IMG/VR virus record: IMGVR_UViG_3300030012_003637 | Span: 1 to 56,578 of that record | Strand: one strand, 5' to 3' | DNA length: 56,578 bases | DNA from: a virus | Taxonomy: Duplodnaviria; Caudoviricetes | In this document: positions 513 to 52,509 of the stretch, in pieces | How the letters are laid out: each line of letters starts with the position of its first letter | Position numbering within the stretch: position 1 is the stretch's first letter | Program-made: the position numbers and the translations under genes | The notes under the pieces: model-generated | The model's input: the letters and a program-made list of their open reading frames with translations, nothing else | Databases searched by the model: none | What the model was told of the DNA's origin: nothing

Positions 513-1424
513 ATGGCAGAAGTAAAAAATTATCAAGAAGTAGTAGATATAGCATCTAAACACTTAGGTAAAGTAGGAGGAGATGGGTATAAGGATACTT
601 ATGCTCCTGAATTATTAGTAAAAGTACCTCGATATTTAAATAGAGAAGGTTACGGATTAACTGATAAAGACTTTGTAGGAGTAGATACTTGGAACTGTTA
701 TGAAGTATCAGCTATTACTAATAAAGGATTACCTGTAGCTGGTATGTTAAAAATTGTATGTCCTTCTGATTCTCAATATCACGTAGAATCTAAATCTATT
801 AAATTATATTTAAATTCGTTTAATATGACTAGATTAGGAGATAATACAGTTGAATGTATTCTAGAGATCGAAGAAAGAGTAAAAGCTGATTTAGATAAGT
901 TACTTGAAACTAATACTACTGTAAGTTTTTATACGGATGAAGAAGACGGTAAAGCATTATCGTTTGAAGGTTATACAGATTTAGGAGATATAGTAGATTT
1001 AGATCAAATAGACTTTACAGCTTTTCAATCTGATGCTTCTCAGCTACTTATAGAAGATACTTCAGATACTCCAAAAGAAATAAAATTAAGATCTAACTTA
1101 TTAAGATCTAACTGTAGAGTAACTAATCAACCAGATTGGGGTGATGTATTTATTAGAATGAATGGTAAAAATTTACCAGCAGCAGATTCAGTAGCAAAGT
1201 ATATAGTATCTCATAGAACTGTAAGTCATTTTCATGAAGAGATATGTGAAATGGTTTTTAAGCACTTAATGGATGCATATAAGCCTGATGACCTAATGGT
1301 ATCATGTTTATATACTAGGAGAGGAGGTTTAGATATTAATCCTATTAGAGCTACTCATTCAAGATTTATTCCTGATTTCTTCACTGATACTGATTATAGA
1401 ATACAAAAAACTTTAAGACAATAA
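513..1424 (+). CDS. queF: NADPH-dependent 7-cyano-7-deazaguanine (preQ0) reductase, bimodular type
   Basis: ESKSIKLYLNSF QueF motif, catalytic LRSNCRVTNQPDWG, FHEEICE, YTRRGGLDINP. Confidence 0.93.
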   Translation: MAEVKNYQEVVDIASKHLGKVGGDGYKDTYAPELLVKVPRYLNREGYGLTDKDFVGVDTWNCYEVSAITNKGLPVAGMLKIVCPSDSQYHVESKSIKLYLNSFNMTRLGDNTVECILEIEERVKADLDKLLETNTTVSFYTDEEDGKALSFEGYTDLGDIVDLDQIDFTAFQSDASQLLIEDTSDTPKEIKLRSNLLRSNCRVTNQPDWGDVFIRMNGKNLPAADSVAKYIVSHRTVSHFHEEICEMVFKHLMDAYKPDDLMVSCLYTRRGGLDINPIRATHSRFIPDFFTDTDYRIQKTLRQ

Positions 1425-2861: not shown

Positions 2862-5189
2862 ATGCAATTAGAAAAAAAATACTATACGGTTCAAGATTCC
2901 GATACGCTTAAGTTAATGTTTGAGCATATAAAAGACTGTGATATAATCGCTGTAGATACTGAAACTTCTGGTCTTAATCCTAGAAAGGATAAAGTAGTAG
3001 GTTGGTCTATATCTGGTGAAGAAGGAGTTGGTTTTTATATACCTACTTTGGTATGGAATTTTGATAAGGATGAATTAGAATTGCAGACTATAGATGGGAC
3101 TTCTACTGAAACTATTTCTAAAAACTTACTTAATAAACTAAAAGGAAAAAAATTAGTATTTCATAATGCATCGTTTGACTGTCAGTTTATAAAAAACTAC
3201 TACGGTGTTAATCTTATAGAAGATATATGGGTTGATACTGGATTGCTTGTTCATACTGTTTATGAAGAAGGAGCTTTTGGTTATGGTAGTCCTTTTGGTT
3301 TAAAGCCTATTGCTATAATGAATCAAGAGGCTTTAGGATTAGACGTTCAAGAAGCTGCTAATAAAGAGCAAGTAGAACTAAAGGAATCTATTAAAAAGAA
3401 TGGAGGCTCAGTTACTAAAGAGCTCTATGAAATATATAAAGCTGACTTGGATATACTTTCTAAATATGCTTCTGCCGATACAGATTTAACGTTACGTATT
3501 TGTAATCTTTATTTAAAGAAACTTAAAGAAGAAAAGATGGAAAAGTTTTTCTTCGAAGATGAGGTTATGCCTATATACAGAGAAGTAACTATTCCTATGG
3601 AATCTGCTGGAGTAGATCTTAATGTAGAGTTAATAGAAAAGACTCATACTGAAATATCTCAAGATCTTCTTAAGAATAAAGAAATAGTTATGAAATCTTT
3701 ATTAGCTTTACCTGAAGTTAAAAAATGGGTTGTAGATACTTCAATGTATAACTACCCTGTATCCCATAAAGGTAATTGGGCTCAGAATTTAGTAACTAGA
3801 TATTCTCTACCTTTACCTAAATCTGAAAAAACTGGTAAGTATTCTCTTACTCAAAAGAATATAGAAGAACTAGAAGATTCTAATGTTAAGGAGTTTTTGT
3901 TAACTGGTAATAAGGACTTAATAGATGATATTGAGAAAGCTAGGATATCTATGGCTCTATGGAAAGAATCTAACGATAATGAATATATTAATATACAGTC
4001 TAAGAAGCATTTAGGAGAAATAGTTTTTGACTATATGGGAGTTAAACCTAAAGTATCAGGTGCTAATACTAAATCTGGTAGAGCTAAGTTTGATATGAAT
4101 ATGGTTGAAGATTTATCTAAAGAGTATACTTGGGCTGAAAATCTAAGAATATATAATAAACTACTTAAGATTAAATCTACTTATGTTGATAGATTTAGAG
4201 ATAGAAATGAAGACGGTAAGTATTATTTTTATTTCAAGCAAAATGGTACTGTATCTGGTCGTTATGGATCTGATGCTCAACAGTTACCTAAACCTTTAGA
4301 GGAAGGAGAAGATGCTCCTATTATTATGAAATACGTTAATATAGTAAGAGCTTTCTTAGTAGCTGGTAAAGGTAGAAAAGTAATCGATGCTGATTATGAA
4401 TCTCTTGAACCTCATTGCTTTGCTTCAGTATCTGGAGATAAAAAACTTCAAGAGATATTTGATAACGGATGGGACTTTTATTCTTATGTAGCTATACAAA
4501 CTGAGAAGTTAGACGGAGTATCTGCTGATAAAAAAGCTGATAACTATCTTAAAAAGTTAGATCCAGTTAAAAGAAATAAAGCTAAAGCTTATTCGTTAGG
4601 AGTAGCATATGGAATGGAAGCTTATGCTCTAAAAATGACTTTAGGAGTAGATCAGAAAACTGCTGAAGGACTAATAAAAGGTTATCTAGATGGATTCCCT
4701 GGTCTTGCTAAATGGAGAGAAAACTCTCGTCAGCAAGTAAAAGATAATGGATTTATAAAAAACTATGTAGGTAGAATACGTCACTTACCTAGAGTTCAAA
4801 AGATATATTCTAAGTTTGGTGAGAAGATGATGGATTGGAGGTTTAGAAAAGACTTAGAAGCTCAAGGATATAAAAGAGATGATGTAATAAAAGTATATAG
4901 AGACTATCGTAATGGTTTAAATAACTGTCTTAACTTTCAGTTACAGTCATTAGCTGCTGCGGTAGTAAATAGAGCTGCAGTTGAAATTAATAGAGCTGCT
5001 AAAGAAAATAATATTGATGCCTATGTTCAGGCTCAAGTACATGACCAATTGATTATTAATGTGAGTGAGGATCAGGCAGAAGAGTTTGCTCCTATAGTTC
5101 AAAAGATTATGGAGACTACTACTCAACTGCCTGGGATTACTCTTAAGGCTCCGCCTGAGATAGCTAATAATTGGAGAGACGGTCATTAA
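2862..5189 (+). CDS. polA: DNA polymerase, family A (3'-5' exonuclease + polymerase)
   Basis: ExoI DTETSG, FHNASFD, YASAD; TVSGR; motif A DADYESLE, motif B KAKAYSLGVAYG, motif C QVHD. Confidence 0.95.
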   Translation: MQLEKKYYTVQDSDTLKLMFEHIKDCDIIAVDTETSGLNPRKDKVVGWSISGEEGVGFYIPTLVWNFDKDELELQTIDGTSTETISKNLLNKLKGKKLVFHNASFDCQFIKNYYGVNLIEDIWVDTGLLVHTVYEEGAFGYGSPFGLKPIAIMNQEALGLDVQEAANKEQVELKESIKKNGGSVTKELYEIYKADLDILSKYASADTDLTLRICNLYLKKLKEEKMEKFFFEDEVMPIYREVTIPMESAGVDLNVELIEKTHTEISQDLLKNKEIVMKSLLALPEVKKWVVDTSMYNYPVSHKGNWAQNLVTRYSLPLPKSEKTGKYSLTQKNIEELEDSNVKEFLLTGNKDLIDDIEKARISMALWKESNDNEYINIQSKKHLGEIVFDYMGVKPKVSGANTKSGRAKFDMNMVEDLSKEYTWAENLRIYNKLLKIKSTYVDRFRDRNEDGKYYFYFKQNGTVSGRYGSDAQQLPKPLEEGEDAPIIMKYVNIVRAFLVAGKGRKVIDADYESLEPHCFASVSGDKKLQEIFDNGWDFYSYVAIQTEKLDGVSADKKADNYLKKLDPVKRNKAKAYSLGVAYGMEAYALKMTLGVDQKTAEGLIKGYLDGFPGLAKWRENSRQQVKDNGFIKNYVGRIRHLPRVQKIYSKFGEKMMDWRFRKDLEAQGYKRDDVIKVYRDYRNGLNNCLNFQLQSLAAAVVNRAAVEINRAAKENNIDAYVQAQVHDQLIINVSEDQAEEFAPIVQKIMETTTQLPGITLKAPPEIANNWRDGH

Positions 5190-5194
5190 AATAT

Positions 5195-5336
5195 TGCCCA
5201 GTAGAGCAGTAGGTAGCTCACTCTGGCTTAACCCGGCGCGAAGCAGATCTTTAACGTGAAGTGAAGCTTGTAATACAATCGATCGTGAAAAGCAAAGGGG
5301 TTAGAGAGGTCGCAGGTTCGAGTCCTGCCTGGGTCA
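5195..5336 (+). ncRNA. tRNA-like RNA (initiator-tRNA-derived) with a 76-nt segment replacing the anticodon loop
   Basis: Acceptor GCCCAG/CTGGGT, D-arm GAGC-AGTAGGTA-GCTC, anticodon stem CTCTG/TAGAG, variable loop AGGTC, T-arm GCAGG-TTCGAGT-CCTGC; 5226-5301 fills the anticodon loop position. Confidence 0.75.
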
Positions 5337-5350
5337 ACTAAATATAAATT

Positions 5351-5503
5351 ATGGATTTTAGAATAGAACTTTTAGGAGACGGAGCCTTACTAGGCTTTAC
5401 ATACTTTGCTAAGAACGACAGGATAGAAGCATATGAAGAAGAAGATTGGAATGAATTAAACATCTACCTCGTTATAGCTAAAATAACATGGAGGTGGTGG
5501 TAA
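5351..5503 (+). CDS. Small hypothetical protein (50 aa)
   Basis: MDFRIELLGDGALLGFTYF...WRWW*; fills the gap before metK; not in the track. Confidence 0.6.
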   Translation: MDFRIELLGDGALLGFTYFAKNDRIEAYEEEDWNELNIYLVIAKITWRWW

Positions 5504-5513
5504 ATAGAAAATT

Positions 5514-6464
5514 ATGATAAGAACAGCAGAATGTATAACACCAAAGCATCCAGATAAGATATGTGATAGAATATCTGATGCTATTTTAGATGCTTGTTTG
5601 GAGCAAGATCCAAACTCAAGAGTTGCAATAGAAACAATGGGAGGTCATGGAATTATATCTGTGACAGGAGAGCTAACAACATCAGCTTATGTAGAAATAC
5701 CTGATATAGTTAGATCAGTATATGACGATGAAATAGGCATACAGGTAAATATAGTTAAACAGTCTCCTGAAATATCTCAAGGAGTAGATACTGGAGGAGC
5801 AGGAGATCAAGGAATAATGATAGGTTACGCATGTAATGAAAATGAAGAAATGGTTCCGGAAGAATATTATTTAGCTCGTAAACTATGTAAAGAAATATAT
5901 AAGAAATATCCTTTTGATGGTAAAACTCAAATAACTATTAATGAACATAACCAAATAAGGGTAGTAGCTTCTTTTCAAAATGCTCCTGCAGCAGAGTTAG
6001 GTAAGATTATTACTAACTTTTTTATGCCTACTAATTATTCAGTTATAGATGTACATTGTAATCCTGCTGGAGATTGGAATATAGGAGGATTTACAGCTGA
6101 TACTGGTTTAACTGGAAGAAAATTAGCAGTAGATAACTATGGACCTAGAATTCCTTTGGGAGGAGGTGCCTTTTCAGGTAAAGATTGTTCTAAAGTAGAC
6201 AGAAGTGCTGCATATGCTGCTAGAAAAGTAGCGGTAGATTATTTAAAAAAATATAATGCTAAAGAAGTTTACGTAACTCTAGCTTATGCTATTGGATATG
6301 ATCAACCTCTTCAAGCAACAGCTACAGTAGATGGCAAACAAATTATTATAGAAGATTATGATTTATCTCCTAATGGAATATGTTCTATGTTAGACTTAAA
6401 GAAGCCTATATTTAGTAAAACTGCTGAATGGGGACATATGGGAAATAACTTTAATTGGAAATAA
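5514..6464 (+). CDS. metK: S-adenosylmethionine synthetase
   Basis: HPDKICDRISD, GAGDQG, DTGLTGRK, GGGAFSGKD, KVDRSAAY. Confidence 0.95.
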   Translation: MIRTAECITPKHPDKICDRISDAILDACLEQDPNSRVAIETMGGHGIISVTGELTTSAYVEIPDIVRSVYDDEIGIQVNIVKQSPEISQGVDTGGAGDQGIMIGYACNENEEMVPEEYYLARKLCKEIYKKYPFDGKTQITINEHNQIRVVASFQNAPAAELGKIITNFFMPTNYSVIDVHCNPAGDWNIGGFTADTGLTGRKLAVDNYGPRIPLGGGAFSGKDCSKVDRSAAYAARKVAVDYLKKYNAKEVYVTLAYAIGYDQPLQATATVDGKQIIIEDYDLSPNGICSMLDLKKPIFSKTAEWGHMGNNFNWK

Positions 6465-6588: not shown

Positions 6589-7026
6589 ATGAGTACATTA
6601 GAAATCTTTGAAAGGCATTTTAGTCCTTTCGACATCCTTTTTAGGAATCAATTCAAATCTGACAGCACATTTCAACCTGTTGGAAATTTTAAACAACCAC
6701 ATCCACTTAATATTTTTTACGATGACGCAGGACTTAACTTTGAAGTTGCCTGTACTGGTCTTACTAAAAAAGATATAGTATTAGATATTGAAGGGGATAT
6801 TTTAAAAATTAGTTATACTAAACCTTTTGAAGAAAGAGGTGATGATGGAGAAATCCATCCAGGAATGATCCATAACGGGTTATCTAAAAAATCATTTGAC
6901 TTAAGATATAAAATAGCACCTAAATTTGATTTAGGTAATATAGATGCTAAGTTAGTAAATGGTTTATTAGAGATCTTTATACCATTAGCTGAAGAAGCTA
7001 AACCAAAATCAATTAAAATTAAGTAA
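6589..7026 (+). CDS. Small heat shock protein (Hsp20/IbpA-like)
   Basis: Alpha-crystallin motifs: AKLVNGLLEIFIP and C-terminal PKSIKIK. Confidence 0.9.
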   Translation: MSTLEIFERHFSPFDILFRNQFKSDSTFQPVGNFKQPHPLNIFYDDAGLNFEVACTGLTKKDIVLDIEGDILKISYTKPFEERGDDGEIHPGMIHNGLSKKSFDLRYKIAPKFDLGNIDAKLVNGLLEIFIPLAEEAKPKSIKIK

Positions 7027-7031
7027 ATTTT

Positions 7032-7052
7032 ATTGCTCTCGAGTTGGATCTT
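7032..7052 (+). repeat. 3' arm of the 21-bp long-range inverted repeat flanking hsp20
   Basis: ATTGCTCTCGAGTTGGATCTT, complementary to 6519-6539; overlaps the GTTG box of the groES promoter. Confidence 0.8.
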
Positions 7053-7074
7053 AAGTATATTTTAGTTATATTAT
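7043..7074 (+). promoter_or_regulatory. Early-type promoter (groES-groEL)
   Basis: GTTG-N20-TATATTAT. Confidence 0.7.
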
Positions 7075-7090
7075 AATAAAAGAAAGTTAT

Positions 7091-7402
7091 ATGTCAAAAA
7101 CATTGCAACCCTCTAACGATAGAATACTCCTTAAACCTATAGATGAAGGAGAAAAAACTTACGGTAATATTGTTATACCCGATATGGGTAAAGAAAAACC
7201 TGAATTAGGTGAAGTATTAGCAGTAGGACCTGGAAGAATGTCTGAGTTCGGTCATATGATCTTAATCAGATCTTGTAAAGTTGGAGATCTCGTATTAGTA
7301 CCTAAAATCGGTACTTTAAGAATAGATTTTGAAGGAGAAGAGTATTATATTGCTCAAGATAAAGAAGTATTAGCAGTAGTAAAAGAATCAGATAATGAAT
7401 AA
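7091..7402 (+). CDS. groES: Co-chaperonin GroES
   Basis: LQPSNDRILLK, GNIVIPD...KEKP..GEVLAVGPG, VGDLVL. Confidence 0.95.
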   Translation: MSKTLQPSNDRILLKPIDEGEKTYGNIVIPDMGKEKPELGEVLAVGPGRMSEFGHMILIRSCKVGDLVLVPKIGTLRIDFEGEEYYIAQDKEVLAVVKESDNE

Positions 7403-9038
7403 AAAAATAACATTTTCAAAAGAAGCTAGAAATAGACTAGCTCATGGAGTTGATCAATTAGCAAATGCTGTAACATCAACGTTAGGACCTTCCGGAAGGA
7501 ATGTAATTATAGAACAAGATATGGGTAATCCTGTATCAACTAAAGATGGAGTAACTGTAGCTAAATCTATTACATTAAAAGGTAAGGTAGAAAATTTAGG
7601 AGCTCAAATAGTAAAGCAAGCAGCTATAAAAACAGCTGACTTTGCTGGAGATGGTACAACTACATCTACTCTATTAGCTCAAGAAATATTAAAAGAAGGT
7701 TTATCTAAAATGGATGATGGAAGTAATGCAGTCGATATCAAAAGAGGTATAGATAAAGCTTCAAAAGGAATCGTAGATTTACTCTATGAAAATTCTAAAG
7801 ATATTACTGATGAAGAGCAAATAAAGCAAATTGCTACTATATCAGCTAATAATGATAAAGAAGTTGGTGAGTTAATTTCAACAGCCATGGACAAGGTAGG
7901 TAGAGACGGAGTAGTTACAATAGAAGAGTCGAAAACAGGTGAGACATATTTGGAAACGGTAGAAGGAATGCAATTCGGCAGAGGTTATAAATCTCCGTAT
8001 TTTGTCACTGACAATAATTCTATGACATCTATTTTAAAAGATCCTTTTATCCTTATCGTAGATAAAAGACTTAATCAAGTCAAAGAGTTACTTCCTATCT
8101 TGGAGGCTGTTTCTCAACAAAATAAATCTTTATTAATTATAGCTGAAGACATAGATGGTGAAGCTTTATCTACTCTAGTAGTAAATAAAATGAGAGGTAT
8201 ATTAGCTTGTGCTGCTGTCAAAGCTCCTGATTTTGGAGATAGAAGAAAAGCTATCTTAGAAGATATAGCAGTATTGACTGGTGGTCAAGTAGTATCAACT
8301 GAAAAAGGTATGAGATTAGATAAGTTTGATTCTGCCTGGTTAGGTAAAGCTAATAAAGCAACAGTTTCAAAAGATACTACTACTATTATAGATGCTAAAG
8401 GTACTGAAGAAACTATAACCGAAAGAGTAGATCAAATCAAAACTATGATAGATGAATCTAATTCACCTTTCGAAAAAGAAAACTTACAGAATAGATTAGC
8501 TAAGTTTATTGGAGGAGTAGCAATAGTACATGTAGGAGGTCATACTGAAATAGAGATGAAAGAGAAAAAAGATAGAGTTGAAGATGCTTTACATGCTACT
8601 AAAGCAGCCTTAGAAGAAGGTATATTACCTGGAGGTGGTATAGCTTTACTTAATGCTGCTAATAAGTTACTCGATAAATTAGGCGATGTTACTAATAAAG
8701 ATGAACTTAAAGGTTACCATATAGTAATGAACGCTTGTGAAAGACCTTTCTTTAAGATCTTAGAAAATGCAGGTATCTCAGACTCTAATACAAAAAGTAT
8801 TGAAAGTAAAATTAGAGAAGAAGATACTCTTTGGGGAGGATATAATCCAAGAATATCTAAGCATGTAAATATGTTTGATGATGGTATTATAGATCCTACT
8901 AAAGTAACTAGATTAGCTCTAGAGAATGCAGCTTCTGTAGCTGGTACATTATTAATTACTGAAGCAGTAGTATCAAAAGGAAAAGAAAAAGAAAATCAAC
9001 AACCTGGAGGTGTAGATCCAAGCATGCTTTTAGGTTAA
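7395..9038 (+). CDS. groEL: Chaperonin GroEL
   Basis: [43 protein letters not shown]. Confidence 0.97.
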
Positions 9039-9369: not shown

Positions 9370-9507
9370 ATGCATAAAGACGCGAAATATTCAAGCGGAG
9401 AACTAGCTCAACTTGCGAGACGTAGGATGATACAAAAACATCATGGCGATGACTCTAAGTATACGCGCAAAACAAAACATAAAAAGGGTTATGATACAAC
9501 CGTATAA
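9370..9507 (+). CDS. Small basic protein, ArfA-like (45 aa)
   Basis: MHKDAKYSSGELAQLARRRMIQKHHGDDSKYTRKTKHKKGYDTTV*; YxRKxKH motif; not in the track. Confidence 0.5.
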   Translation: MHKDAKYSSGELAQLARRRMIQKHHGDDSKYTRKTKHKKGYDTTV

Positions 9508-9877
9508 ATTCGAGACAAGGGGTATAGGTCTTATAACTGATAGACTTATCTCAAAAGGTGCGTTTGTGGGTAATTATGTATTGAAGGATATTCCAACTTC
9601 TCCTTTACAAAGACATATATACGACGGATGGGTTGAAACAGATCCGTTCGGAAGGTATTTGAATCATAATGAAAATAGTAATTTAGAGTTTGTATTAAAT
9701 AATGAAGCCGTGGAAATATTCGCGAGCCATGCTATAGAACCTTATACTGAACTTACTGTAAATTATTTCGATTTAGTAAATCTTTTAAATATACCTAAAA
9801 GTATTATTGAAGAGTTTAGTATAAGTAAATTTAATTACGAAGAAGAATTAATTAAAATAAATAAAGACTTACTTTAA
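9491..9877 (+). CDS. SET-domain protein (putative lysine methyltransferase)
   Basis: GIGLIT, GRYLNH, ELTVNY motifs; start reassigned to ATG 9491 after gggtt. Confidence 0.8.
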   Translation: MIQPYKFETRGIGLITDRLISKGAFVGNYVLKDIPTSPLQRHIYDGWVETDPFGRYLNHNENSNLEFVLNNEAVEIFASHAIEPYTELTVNYFDLVNLLNIPKSIIEEFSISKFNYEEELIKINKDLL

Positions 9878-45946: not shown

Positions 45947-46302
45947 TGAAAGATTTAAATTGGTATTATATATTTTTAGGATTTTTAGTTACCATACTAG
46001 CCCAAGTAGGTGCATGGTATCAACACAATCTTCAATTTAAGAATCCTAAATATGATGAAACATGGTGGGGTATGTATATCTTAGCTATTCCACTTACTTA
46101 TGTTTTTATTTTAGCTACTAAATATAATGTAATAGGGTATGGAGGTTCAATCTGGGGAGGTAGATTTGTAGGCTTTGCTTTAGGAATGTTAGTATATGCT
46201 GTAATGATACAAATATATTTTAAAGAACCTTTTACGTTAAAGATAGCAGTTCAACTTCTTCTTTGTACATCTATTTTAGCTGTGCAAGCTTTTTGGAAAT
46301 AA
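45946..46302 (+). CDS. Four-TM small membrane protein (DMT/SMR-like)
   Basis: Four hydrophobic helices, F.EP..LK near the C-terminus. Confidence 0.55.
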   Translation: MKDLNWYYIFLGFLVTILAQVGAWYQHNLQFKNPKYDETWWGMYILAIPLTYVFILATKYNVIGYGGSIWGGRFVGFALGMLVYAVMIQIYFKEPFTLKIAVQLLLCTSILAVQAFWK

Positions 46303-51403: not shown

Positions 51404-51593
51404 TAAACTTACAATAAAGCAAAGACTCCGAGGGTGGGGCTTTGATATGGACCAATTGAGGGAGAGTGAGGGGGCGCTTTTCTCCTCTCTCGACCGAAGG
51501 TCGCCACGCGCATTTTCAACTAACGTTTCAAATGATCTTCCTAACTACTGCCATTACTCCGGTTTAAGGACGGTAAGGAGTTATATGGAATAA
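51390..51593 (+). CDS. Hypothetical protein containing the GC-rich element
   Basis: 67 aa ending CHYSGLRTVRSYME. Confidence 0.45.
   Translation: MKGYNKLTIKQRLRGWGFDMDQLRESEGALFSSLDRRSPRAFSTNVSNDLPNYCHYSGLRTVRSYME
51462..51516 (+). repeat. GC-rich structured element, copy 2
   Basis: GAGAGTGAGGGGGCGCTTTTCTCCTCTCTCGACCGAAGGTCGCCACGCGCATTTT; homologous to 9218-9265 with compensatory stems. Confidence 0.7.
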
Positions 51594-51802
51594 ATAAAGG
51601 CTGAGGTATAGTAGACTTTGGTTAATACTCTATATCATTTTATATTAGATAATAGGAGAGAGACTATCTAAGCCATATTAGATAAAGGGATAGAAGCTAT
51701 GCTTACCATAAAGACTATTAATAATAGGGAGTGTATATATTCATATATTAATATACTTATATAAACATATATGTTCTATAGAATAAACAGATAGTAACGT
51801 AT

Positions 51803-51834
51803 AAAATATAAGGGTAATAGATCAGGCACCCACC
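51803..51834 (-). promoter_or_regulatory. Degenerate early-type promoter, minus strand
   Basis: Reverse complement GGTG-N20-TATATTTT with the usual spacer CTG. Confidence 0.35.
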
Positions 51835-51904
51835 TCCCTCCCTTCTTTTTTTTCTCTATATAGGATATTTTCCAGGCCATACAGGGGAAATAATACGGAA
51901 AATA

Positions 51905-51936
51905 GTTGGATATATGAGATATATTTCGTATATTTA
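51905..51936 (+). promoter_or_regulatory. Early-type promoter
   Basis: GTTG-N20-TATATTTA. Confidence 0.75.
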
Positions 51937-51956
51937 AGTATTAAATAAAGGTTATA

Positions 51957-52067
51957 ATGAAAAGGTTATATAATAAACTCAAGGAGCCTATAGTAAGTTT
52001 CTTATTTATAGCACTAGTATTTTACTTATTGTATATCAGCCTATGGATGTTTTGTCCTTGTCCATAA
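51957..52067 (+). CDS. Small membrane peptide (36 aa)
   Basis: MKRLYNKLKEPIVSFLFIALVFYLLYISLWMFCPCP*; aaaggttataATG context. Confidence 0.5.
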   Translation: MKRLYNKLKEPIVSFLFIALVFYLLYISLWMFCPCP

Positions 52068-52424
52068 AAGGCCTCTATAGTACTATTAGTCTGATTTAAG
52101 ACTGATCTACATATGCCATCAATGTGATATAACACTGCCAGTATAGTTCCCTATACGGTACCTCTATGGCTATATCTGCCCAGACCTATCTTCCTCTTTC
52201 TCATAACTTTTTACCTATAGGTTTATATATAAATATATATAGATATATAGAGATACTAAGTTTAGCCTATAAAAATACAGGATTTATACGGGATTAATAA
52301 AAATAAGTATAAATTATTACCTATAGTACTATCTATTGTGGTACTTATCGTTATACTTACTGGAATAATATTGGTAATCCTTTGGTGATACCTTCAGATC
52401 CAATATACTAACAATTACTCTATA

Positions 52425-52456
52425 ATAATATAAGAAGATTTTTGGTAGTTTCCAAC
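52425..52456 (-). promoter_or_regulatory. Early-type promoter on the minus strand
   Basis: Reverse complement GTTG gaaactaccaaaaatcttct TATATTAT, exact 20-nt spacer; only clean minus-strand copy seen. Confidence 0.7.
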
Positions 52457-52509
52457 GAAAACCATGGAAATTTTCCGAAAAAAAATTTTGTATATAGGGG
52501 TTTTTTCTA

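Follow-up and report, generated by a model that had tools for sequence, protein, structure and literature searches.

An initiator-type tRNA gene of marine phages with a folded RNA module in place of its anticodon loop

The viral contig IMGVR_UViG_3300030012_003637 (Duplodnaviria; Caudoviricetes), an IMG/VR record of 56.6 kb estimated to be 34% complete and analysed here over its whole length (56,578 nt, hereafter the window), carries on its + strand, at 5195-5336, an initiator-type tRNA gene whose anticodon loop has been swapped for a folded RNA module. The full tRNA cloverleaf fold is kept, with 69-76 extra bases at the place of the anticodon loop; 76 nt (5226-5301) lie between the anticodon-stem strands CTCTG and TAGAG. 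Our sequence reading of this insert agrees with that of the initial annotation, which had been made by a model from the letters alone, except that the 3' end of the gene, placed there at 5340, is at 5336. The gene is real, it is conserved at the RNA level and it stands outside the known classes. As to its function, we lean tentatively towards an unspliced, non-decoding tRNA-scaffold RNA, the working part of which would be the conserved apical loop of the insert, with its palindrome.

The fold is carried by compensatory changes. Alignment A1, on which the counts below rest, contains 84 distinct sequences with the insert of the window (type 1); two sequences with a type-2 insert, described below, and one duplicate of the window are omitted from it. 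In this alignment 94.6% of the pair cells are paired, against 80.0% (sd 0.4) in shuffles, both-side changes are found in 24 of the 35 pairs, and none of 500 shuffles matches the observed pairing or covariation score. When the partners are slid by 1-3 columns, pairing falls to 31-55%. All four tRNA arms covary, as do the closing helix of the insert and two hairpins within the latter, so that the covariation check that had been proposed for the insert gives a positive answer. The acceptor stem pairs TGCCCAG (5195-5201) with CTGGGTC (5329-5335), with a U1xC72 mismatch and a G2.U71 pair at its top, and its pairs 3-7 covary. The D arm (GAGC-AGTAGGTA-GCTC, 5204-5219, with G18 G19 present and A11:U24) and the T arm (GCAGG-TTCGAGT-CCTGC, 5312-5328) are both paired in 100% of their cells, with both-side changes in three of four and three of five pairs, respectively. 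The 5' strand of the anticodon stem, CTCTG plus G5226 (5221-5226), faces T5301 and the 3' strand TAGAG (5302-5306), after which comes a 5-nt variable loop, AGGTC, ending at 5311. This helix of six pairs is 99.6% paired and changed on both sides in five of them; indeed, the sixth pair itself covaries (G.U, A-U and C-G). RNAalifold, which recovers the cloverleaf and the insert helices P1 and P2 independently, adds a seventh pair, C5227:G5300 (CG in 83 sequences, UG in one). The arms first read in the window, namely an acceptor stem with a 1:72 mismatch, a D arm, a T arm and the CTCTG/TAGAG anticodon stem, are thus those that covary among the 84 sequences. Moreover, the positions on which the tertiary structure of a canonical tRNA depends are kept along with its stems (U8, G18 G19, the T-loop TTCGA and the 10:25:45 triple, which covaries by mutual information). 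The minimum free energy of the single window sequence gives no signal either way (z = -0.21).

Within the anticodon stem, the arm opens with an A/U-rich bulge, CTTAA (5227-5231), which is what is left of the anticodon loop and whose two final A are invariant. It is followed by P1, the insert-closing helix, formed by CCC (5232-5234) and GGG (5297-5299). P1 is paired in 84 of 84 sequences, and one of its pairs (alignment columns 42:108) occurs as CG, UA, AU, GC and UG, that is, as five pair types. Next come the internal-loop purines GG and the 5' strand of P2, CGCG (together 5235-5240). The partner of P2 is ambiguous, being either GC 5292-5293 or CGTG 5284-5287: both options are more than 93% paired (93.8% for the CGCG/CGTG alternative) and neither has a both-side change. 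The long form, to which the window belongs, then bears an optional extension (5241-5269) made of an outer helix AAGC/GCTT (5241-5244/5266-5269) and an inner hairpin (5248-5251/5259-5262, loop TAACGTG), two pairs of each helix being changed on both sides. This extension is missing in 17 of the 84 sequences, the short form, whose elements measure 111-113 nt. The near-invariant core GTAATACAATCGATCGTGAAAAGC (5270-5293), which includes the palindrome CGATCG at 5280-5285, leads to the segment 5294-5301, made of the AAA internal loop, the 3' strand of P1, G5300 and T5301. Hardly any variation is seen in the apical sequence GTAATA..CGATCGTGAAAAGC, and none at G5300 or at the C:G pair that opens the insert; CGATCG was found in 21 of 21 type-1 loci recovered by a scan that left the insert unspecified. 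Since the insert core is near-invariant over 84 distinct sequences, the insert's own sequence is under selection.

Not all the pairings first proposed for the insert hold in the relatives. In TAACCC/GGGTTA, the CCC/GGG part covaries and the TAA/TTA extension is not conserved; neither the GATC/GATC pairing nor the TTGT-AAT-ACAA hairpin is conserved, and the repeated GYGAA motifs amount to a CGTGAA that occurs twice, in long forms. The likeness of GGCT-TAACCC to an fMet arm devoid of its CA is a mere resemblance, since this CCC is engaged in pairing with the insert's own 3' end. A dead tRNA gene, split by a scar or by a small mobile DNA element and without RNA function, is highly improbable in view of these data. 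Such a gene would account for the rejection of the element by default tRNA finders, and the closing helix can be read as terminal inverted repeats. However, compensatory changes are found in every stem, the 84 distinct sequences, drawn from many contigs, share an invariant core, there is no sign of a target-site duplication, and the five pair types at one P1 position make it unlikely that the alignment represents a single recent clone. A normal tRNA with an unconserved insert, the picture expected of a decaying pseudogene or an integration scar, is not seen in the relatives, and we set this reading aside because the insert is conserved and structured.

The same site also receives a second type of insert. 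At four loci (L056, L348, L086 and L353), the junction and the tRNA body are those of type 1 and the interior is unrelated. The type-2 junction consists of CTTAA, a closing helix initiated by C:G (CTTAT/ATAAG, CTCAA/TTGAG or CTGAAG/CTTCAG), a G and a T. The interior, of about 60 nt, contains an internal hairpin and a palindrome of 6 nt towards its 3' side; the latter reads ATGCAT in three sequences and GTGCAC in one, a double change preserving self-complementarity. Two further products of the type-2 pattern scan (L349 and L350) were discarded as chance matches in coding sequence, and L035, L036, L041 and L048 as fortuitous matches of the type-1 core. Each form of the insert (short, long and type 2) occurs in several acceptor/D-stem lineages of the body, so that inserts and bodies must have recombined. 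No insert-free copy was found with three patterns independent of the insert, which was present in 18 of 18 matches to the 5'-half pattern, 29 of 29 to the 3'-half pattern and 25 of 25 to the junction pattern.

Where does the tRNA body come from? Bacterial initiator tRNAs are characterized by an unpaired 1:72, A11:U24, a run of three G:C pairs in the anticodon stem and the anticodon CAU. Insert-free viral tRNAs sharing the D arm and the variable/T arm of the element were found at 27 loci, and ARAGORN calls a tRNA-Met(CAT) in 27 of 27; as read from their sequences, most of them combine a GGG/CCC anticodon stem with an unpaired first pair. In A1, A11:U24 is AU in 70 of 84 sequences, the window included, and the top of the acceptor stem is unpaired at 1:72 in 47, at 2:71 in 42 and at either position in 83 (UxC in the window). 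The G:C run and the CAU anticodon of initiators are absent from the element, which has the stem CTCTG/TAGAG and no CAT. Because the 27 tRNA-Met(CAT) share its arms, A11:U24 is kept and the acceptor top is mismatched, sequence comparison supports a body derived from an initiator/Met-type tRNA, and the initiator origin initially suggested appears well founded. The discriminator, A5336 in the window, is A in 52, G in 30, C in one and T in one of the 84 sequences, with A/G switches among close relatives; an acceptor-top mismatch combined with a shifting discriminator is unlike an elongator tRNA of fixed identity. CCA is not encoded, as had been noticed, ACTAA following directly upon A5336. This 3' flank (5337-5341 in the window) is mostly CTAA or CAAA in the relatives and never CCA; its bases may be relevant to 3' processing or to the short leader of the next gene.

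The non-decoding scaffold that we tentatively favour would work as follows. The gene would specify a chimeric RNA, in which a long irregular arm replaces the anticodon loop of an initiator/Met-type tRNA body, this arm presenting in order a stem of 6-7 bp, the UUAA bulge, P1, an internal loop made of purines and AAA, then a short P2 and an apical domain that bears the near-invariant AAUA..CGAUCGUGAAAAGC, the 6-nt palindrome included. Transcribed as part of the operon, it would be freed by cuts at the two ends of the tRNA, made by the RNase P of the host and a 3' tRNA-processing nuclease (RNase Z, for instance), and its tRNA fold would stabilise it. In favour of this scheme speak the selection at the RNA level on body and insert, the lack of insert-free copies among the loci found with the three patterns, and the type-2 inserts, which have a common architecture with type 1 and keep a palindrome of their own. 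The apical loop thus displayed could bind a protein or RNA partner, or pair with a second copy through the palindrome; in a sub-case of this scheme, the RNA could serve as a decoy for a host factor recognising initiator tRNA. A decoding tRNA is argued against by the variable length of the bulge, by the mismatched acceptor top of 83 of the 84 sequences and by the varying discriminator. Indeed, the bulge left of P1 reads CTTAA in 71 sequences, CTAAA in four, CATAA in four, CATTAA in four and TTTATAA in one, so that its length goes from 5 to 7 nt and only the final AA is fixed. Furthermore, 4 of 140 loci hold, besides the element, a canonical class-II tRNA-Leu(taa). RtcB (PF01139), the splicing endonuclease (PF01974) and PF09414 were each found in none of five phage records (no RNA-ligase domain), namely that of the window and four relatives, some of them fragments and one a 100%-complete genome of 176.6 kb, host enzymes lying outside this search. 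The other tRNAs of this complete genome are only Arg(tct) and Ala(tgc), and TGT (PF01702) was found in neither of two phage records.

Several observations weigh against such a scaffold, and most of them favour a precursor tRNA with a new small intron of 37-69 nt, which would either catalyse its own removal or be excised by the host (with an endonuclease and RtcB-type ligation) to give a decoding tRNA, a possibility that we take seriously while finding it less probable. The product would most likely have a 6-bp anticodon stem and the anticodon UAA, for the abundant UUA. The insert lies exactly at the site of tRNA introns, 3' of an anticodon-like triplet in the string CU-UAA, and its flanks are joined by the covarying closing helix. 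The invariance of the last base, G5300, and of the first C:G pair is like that of splice-site signals, and the two insert types share their boundaries; their shuffling among bodies at a single site looks like intron turnover. Removal of 5232-5300 would leave a 5-bp stem and a 7-nt loop, removal of 5232-5298 would leave, on a 6-bp stem, the loop CUUAAGG with U33 and the anticodon UAA, and one variant has a perfect UUUAUAA loop. UUA is the top Leu codon (901 of 1416) and ATA the top Ile codon (707 of 1353), and the companion tRNAs also read A-ending codons (Gln ttg at 20 loci, Ala tgc at nine, and Arg tct). The full tertiary signature of a tRNA is kept, RtcB is present in a Bacteroides control genome, and one report describes highly conserved, 'enigmatic' tRNA introns in the Lak megaphages of Prevotella (PMC6784885). 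A scaffold acting on RNA targets gains nothing from our search for antisense targets in two phage genomes, in which the best non-self duplexes (-21 to -22 kcal/mol) equal those of shuffled-query controls.

The small intron nevertheless meets difficulties of its own. No choice of boundaries restores the canonical anticodon arm, in which a 5-bp stem carries a 7-nt loop with U33 and a purine at 37, the 7-nt option having C33 and the anticodon UUA, that of an ochre suppressor. The 5-7 nt bulge, the acceptor-top mismatch in 83 of 84 sequences and the varying discriminator fit a decoding product poorly, and no insert-free allele was found with the three insert-independent patterns. No bulge-helix-bulge, group I core or Rfam ribozyme fits the insert, the five phage records hold no splicing enzyme, none of 185,579 species genomes contains the insert, and at four loci the canonical tRNA-Leu(taa) stands beside the element. 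Recoding of TAA, or an ochre suppressor, was rejected: code 11 covers 90.5% of the window, and TAA, the principal stop codon, ends 56 of 84 long + strand frames. In its most specific version, a new class of very small tRNA introns (37-69 nt) in phages of bacteria, spliced by its own catalysis or by a host pathway that is not known to act on tRNAs in this way and giving a product that reads UUA, this explanation seems to us rather unlikely.

The insert-bearing sequence is present in RNA libraries. A metatranscriptome contig of 151 nt covers 5144-5294 with one mismatch, taking in the 3' end of the upstream polymerase gene, the first half of the tRNA and the greater part of the insert, and the insert-bearing sequence of a relative is found in RNA contigs from two studies, at depths of 20 and 42. 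No contig joining the two halves without the insert was found in the assembled contigs of four metatranscriptome runs, whose cover is patchy. However, carried-over DNA or a precursor not yet processed may be the source of such contigs, in which a small spliced tRNA would be invisible, so that they are also compatible with a spliced form of 73-76 nt.

Standard tools give a fragmentary view of this gene. By default, ARAGORN finds no gene for the element; when introns are allowed, the check recommended in the initial annotation, it calls one at 5194-5338. Applied to 30 homologues, the intron mode returns taa in 16, tag in 11, aag in two and tat in one, at inconsistent positions (36-39). Nothing in the window matches Rfam at the gathering score, and at E<=10 (5100-5450) only the T-arm/3' half matches tRNA, with 16.2 bits against a cut-off of 29, so that the whole gene stays below the threshold of the canonical-tRNA family (RF00005, or ARAGORN default). 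These results agree with the early view that the element is neither a group I intron nor a tmRNA, and it matches no Rfam family. The known small ribozymes and riboswitches of Rfam 15 were rejected for want of a covariance-model match, at the gathering score over the type-1 window or at E<=10 over 5100-5450. A tmRNA was rejected because the ARAGORN tmRNA mode finds none, a full D arm is present and the short frame of the insert is not conserved in relatives, and a group I intron because the insert measures 37-69 nt and has no Rfam match at E<=10. In the case of a bulge-helix-bulge intron, the covarying pairs define a different junction and PF01974 is absent from the five phage records.

Homologues were collected by exact-pattern scans of IMG/VR with the T arm, the insert core, the 5' half and the 3' half, and by a combined-pattern scan of metagenome contigs, which matched at least 120 stretches. 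These pattern scans gave 140 complete copies, representing 86 distinct sequences, in contigs of marine viruses and metagenomes. Of 155 nhmmer hits, 15 were left out, being truncated at a contig end or devoid of the two anchor motifs. The sequencing runs that contain the DNA of the window are marine. As judged from the family A DNA polymerase (PolA), the nearest cultured relative is Flavobacterium phage vB_FspM_immuto (68% identical along the whole length), which points to marine Flavobacteriia as the probable hosts. The element was found neither in immuto nor in two near-complete uncultured relatives, the only tRNA genes of which are ordinary tRNA-Arg and tRNA-Thr; a weak R1 match in immuto (E = 0.119) was rejected as an unrelated repeat region, a run of CTTTAACTTAAAG-like repeats (L340, NC_055915.1 ~67326-67480) having caused a spurious weak match to the RNA model. 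The core-plus-T-arm pattern has no match in 185,579 species genomes. A mimic of a CRISPR repeat or of a host RNA was rejected, the matches of the 17-nt core in bacterial genomes (at least 120 stretches) being single and scattered, with one match per stretch in 80 of the 80 listed among these. The window holds no second copy of the element at up to three mismatches. No earlier description of the family was found in the open-access literature, supplements being outside that search, in which the Lak report was the sole precedent; the phrase 'tRNA intron' is absent from the accessible text of a paper on crAss-like phages (PMC7886860).

The element lies 5 nt past the stop codon of the PolA gene (2862-5189) and 14 nt before an open reading frame (ORF) of 50 aa (5351-5503) that belongs to no known family and precedes the genes for SAM synthetase, Hsp20, GroES and GroEL. 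It shows cassette-like mobility. With the 50-aa ORF, it forms a cassette of about 313 nt (5193-5505, + strand) between the PolA stop and the MetK start, and this cassette is missing in the two closest PolA relatives (L020 and L003), where the same stop and start are about 10 nt apart; the L020 contig carries the element elsewhere (L027). Across 141 loci, the element is always co-oriented with its neighbours and no protein neighbour is conserved; the genes just downstream fall in at least 25 unrelated clusters, with a start codon usually 10-22 nt past the element. Could it act in cis? As a tRNA-like cutting signal for RNase P/Z, or as a stabiliser or regulator of the 5' end of the downstream gene, in which the insert would tune the role, it would suit its co-orientation and tight packing between the PolA stop and the next start, its displacement together with the downstream ORF, and the RNA contig that runs from the 3' end of PolA into it. 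We nevertheless find such a role quite improbable. No specific regulatory logic is visible, since the downstream genes fall in so many unrelated clusters, tight spacing is normal in phage genomes, ordinary tRNAs would serve equally, and a cutting signal leaves the near-invariant 22-nt loop and its conserved palindrome unexplained. A promoter and terminator scan, made with a tool that lacks Bacteroidota promoters, gave nothing convincing.

Recurrent neighbours are found among the Que genes. Of 141 loci, 37 have QueC upstream at a distance of up to 3 kb (median 82 nt), 35 have QueD downstream and 27 have QueE, and the element may stand between QueC and QueD/QueE, within the preQ0/preQ1 cluster, as in L024, L025, L034 and L058. 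This phage family makes 7-deazaguanine DNA, QueF being encoded in the window, and one study reports that the dG peak is gone from digested immuto DNA, fdPreQ1 being found instead (PMC10516641). The association of the element with the Que pathway may be only synteny among related phages, no mechanistic link being visible. The auxiliary genes of the window (513-1424, 5514-6464, 6589-9038 and 9443-9877) encode QueF, SAM synthetase, Hsp20, GroES, GroEL and a SET-domain protein, a set partly common to immuto. In the complete relative G001, a gene with a formyltransferase N-domain lies about 6 kb from the element. Elsewhere in the window, 46209-46267 (+) gives a weak match to the tRNA model (14.9 bits, E 0.09), and 51404-52497, 1094 nt without a frame of at least 80 codons on either strand, is the longest such gap and has no Rfam match at the gathering score. 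In a dense tRNA cluster of another marine phage (168-kb contig G007, L022:515-683, - strand), the intron mode of ARAGORN predicts a tRNA-Ser(gga) of class-II-like form, interrupted at 36/37 by 82 nt; this is perhaps another, unrelated example of an insert in a phage tRNA.

Default bacterial tRNA finders overlook such genes entirely. If the insert is kept, the element would be a natural version of the tRNA scaffold of biotechnologists and a widespread non-coding RNA of marine phages, in which the tRNA fold has been borrowed for processing and stability and a conserved loop, with its palindrome, is shown to a partner. If it is removed, it would represent a type of tRNA intron outside the three known splicing routes, in bacteria or phages; the Lak megaphage introns may then be the same phenomenon, and Bacteroidota would possess a tRNA-splicing capacity. 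The family being large (at least 120 metagenome matches), well defined, small and absent from Rfam, both outcomes are directly testable.

Other RNAs join a tRNA-shaped module to a non-tRNA functional domain, among them tmRNA and YrlA, a bacterial Y-RNA-like RNA. A tmRNA has no full D arm and carries a tag ORF over at least 250 nt, whereas the element has a full D arm and no conserved ORF. YrlA has the opposite topology, its termini lying in the non-tRNA stem. The element has no Rfam match. Bacterial group I introns are found in tRNA anticodon loops and possess a conserved catalytic core (P3-P9), typically of at least 200 nt. The element resembles them by its anticodon-loop insert and the invariant last G of this insert, but the latter measures 37-69 nt and shows no U.G P1 arrangement at a plausible splice site. 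In the protein-spliced tRNA introns of archaea and eukaryotes, at 37/38, two 3-nt bulges surround a 4-bp helix. Here too, the insert is adjacent to the anticodon and its pairing extends the anticodon stem; however, the bulges of the element are of 4-5 nt on one strand and 0-1 nt on the other, the hosts are bacterial, and the five phage records hold no splicing endonuclease.

The Lak megaphages also belong to the closest known systems, their 'enigmatic', highly conserved tRNA introns having been found by intron-aware prediction (Devoto et al. 2019, PMC6784885). Set side by side by description, the two systems share non-group-I inserts in phage tRNA genes and highly conserved insert sequences, in phages of Bacteroidota (Prevotella there, probably Flavobacteriia here). 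They differ in that the Lak introns interrupt ordinary decoding tRNAs (Thr and Tyr), of which intron-free alleles also exist, whereas we found no insert-free allele of the element, whose anticodon is degenerate and whose acceptor top is mismatched.

The engineered tRNA scaffold of Ponchon and Dardel offers a last parallel. In that design, an RNA of interest replaces the anticodon loop, and the cell reportedly processes and protects the product like a tRNA. That scaffold is man-made, whereas the phage element is a candidate for its natural, evolutionarily conserved counterpart.

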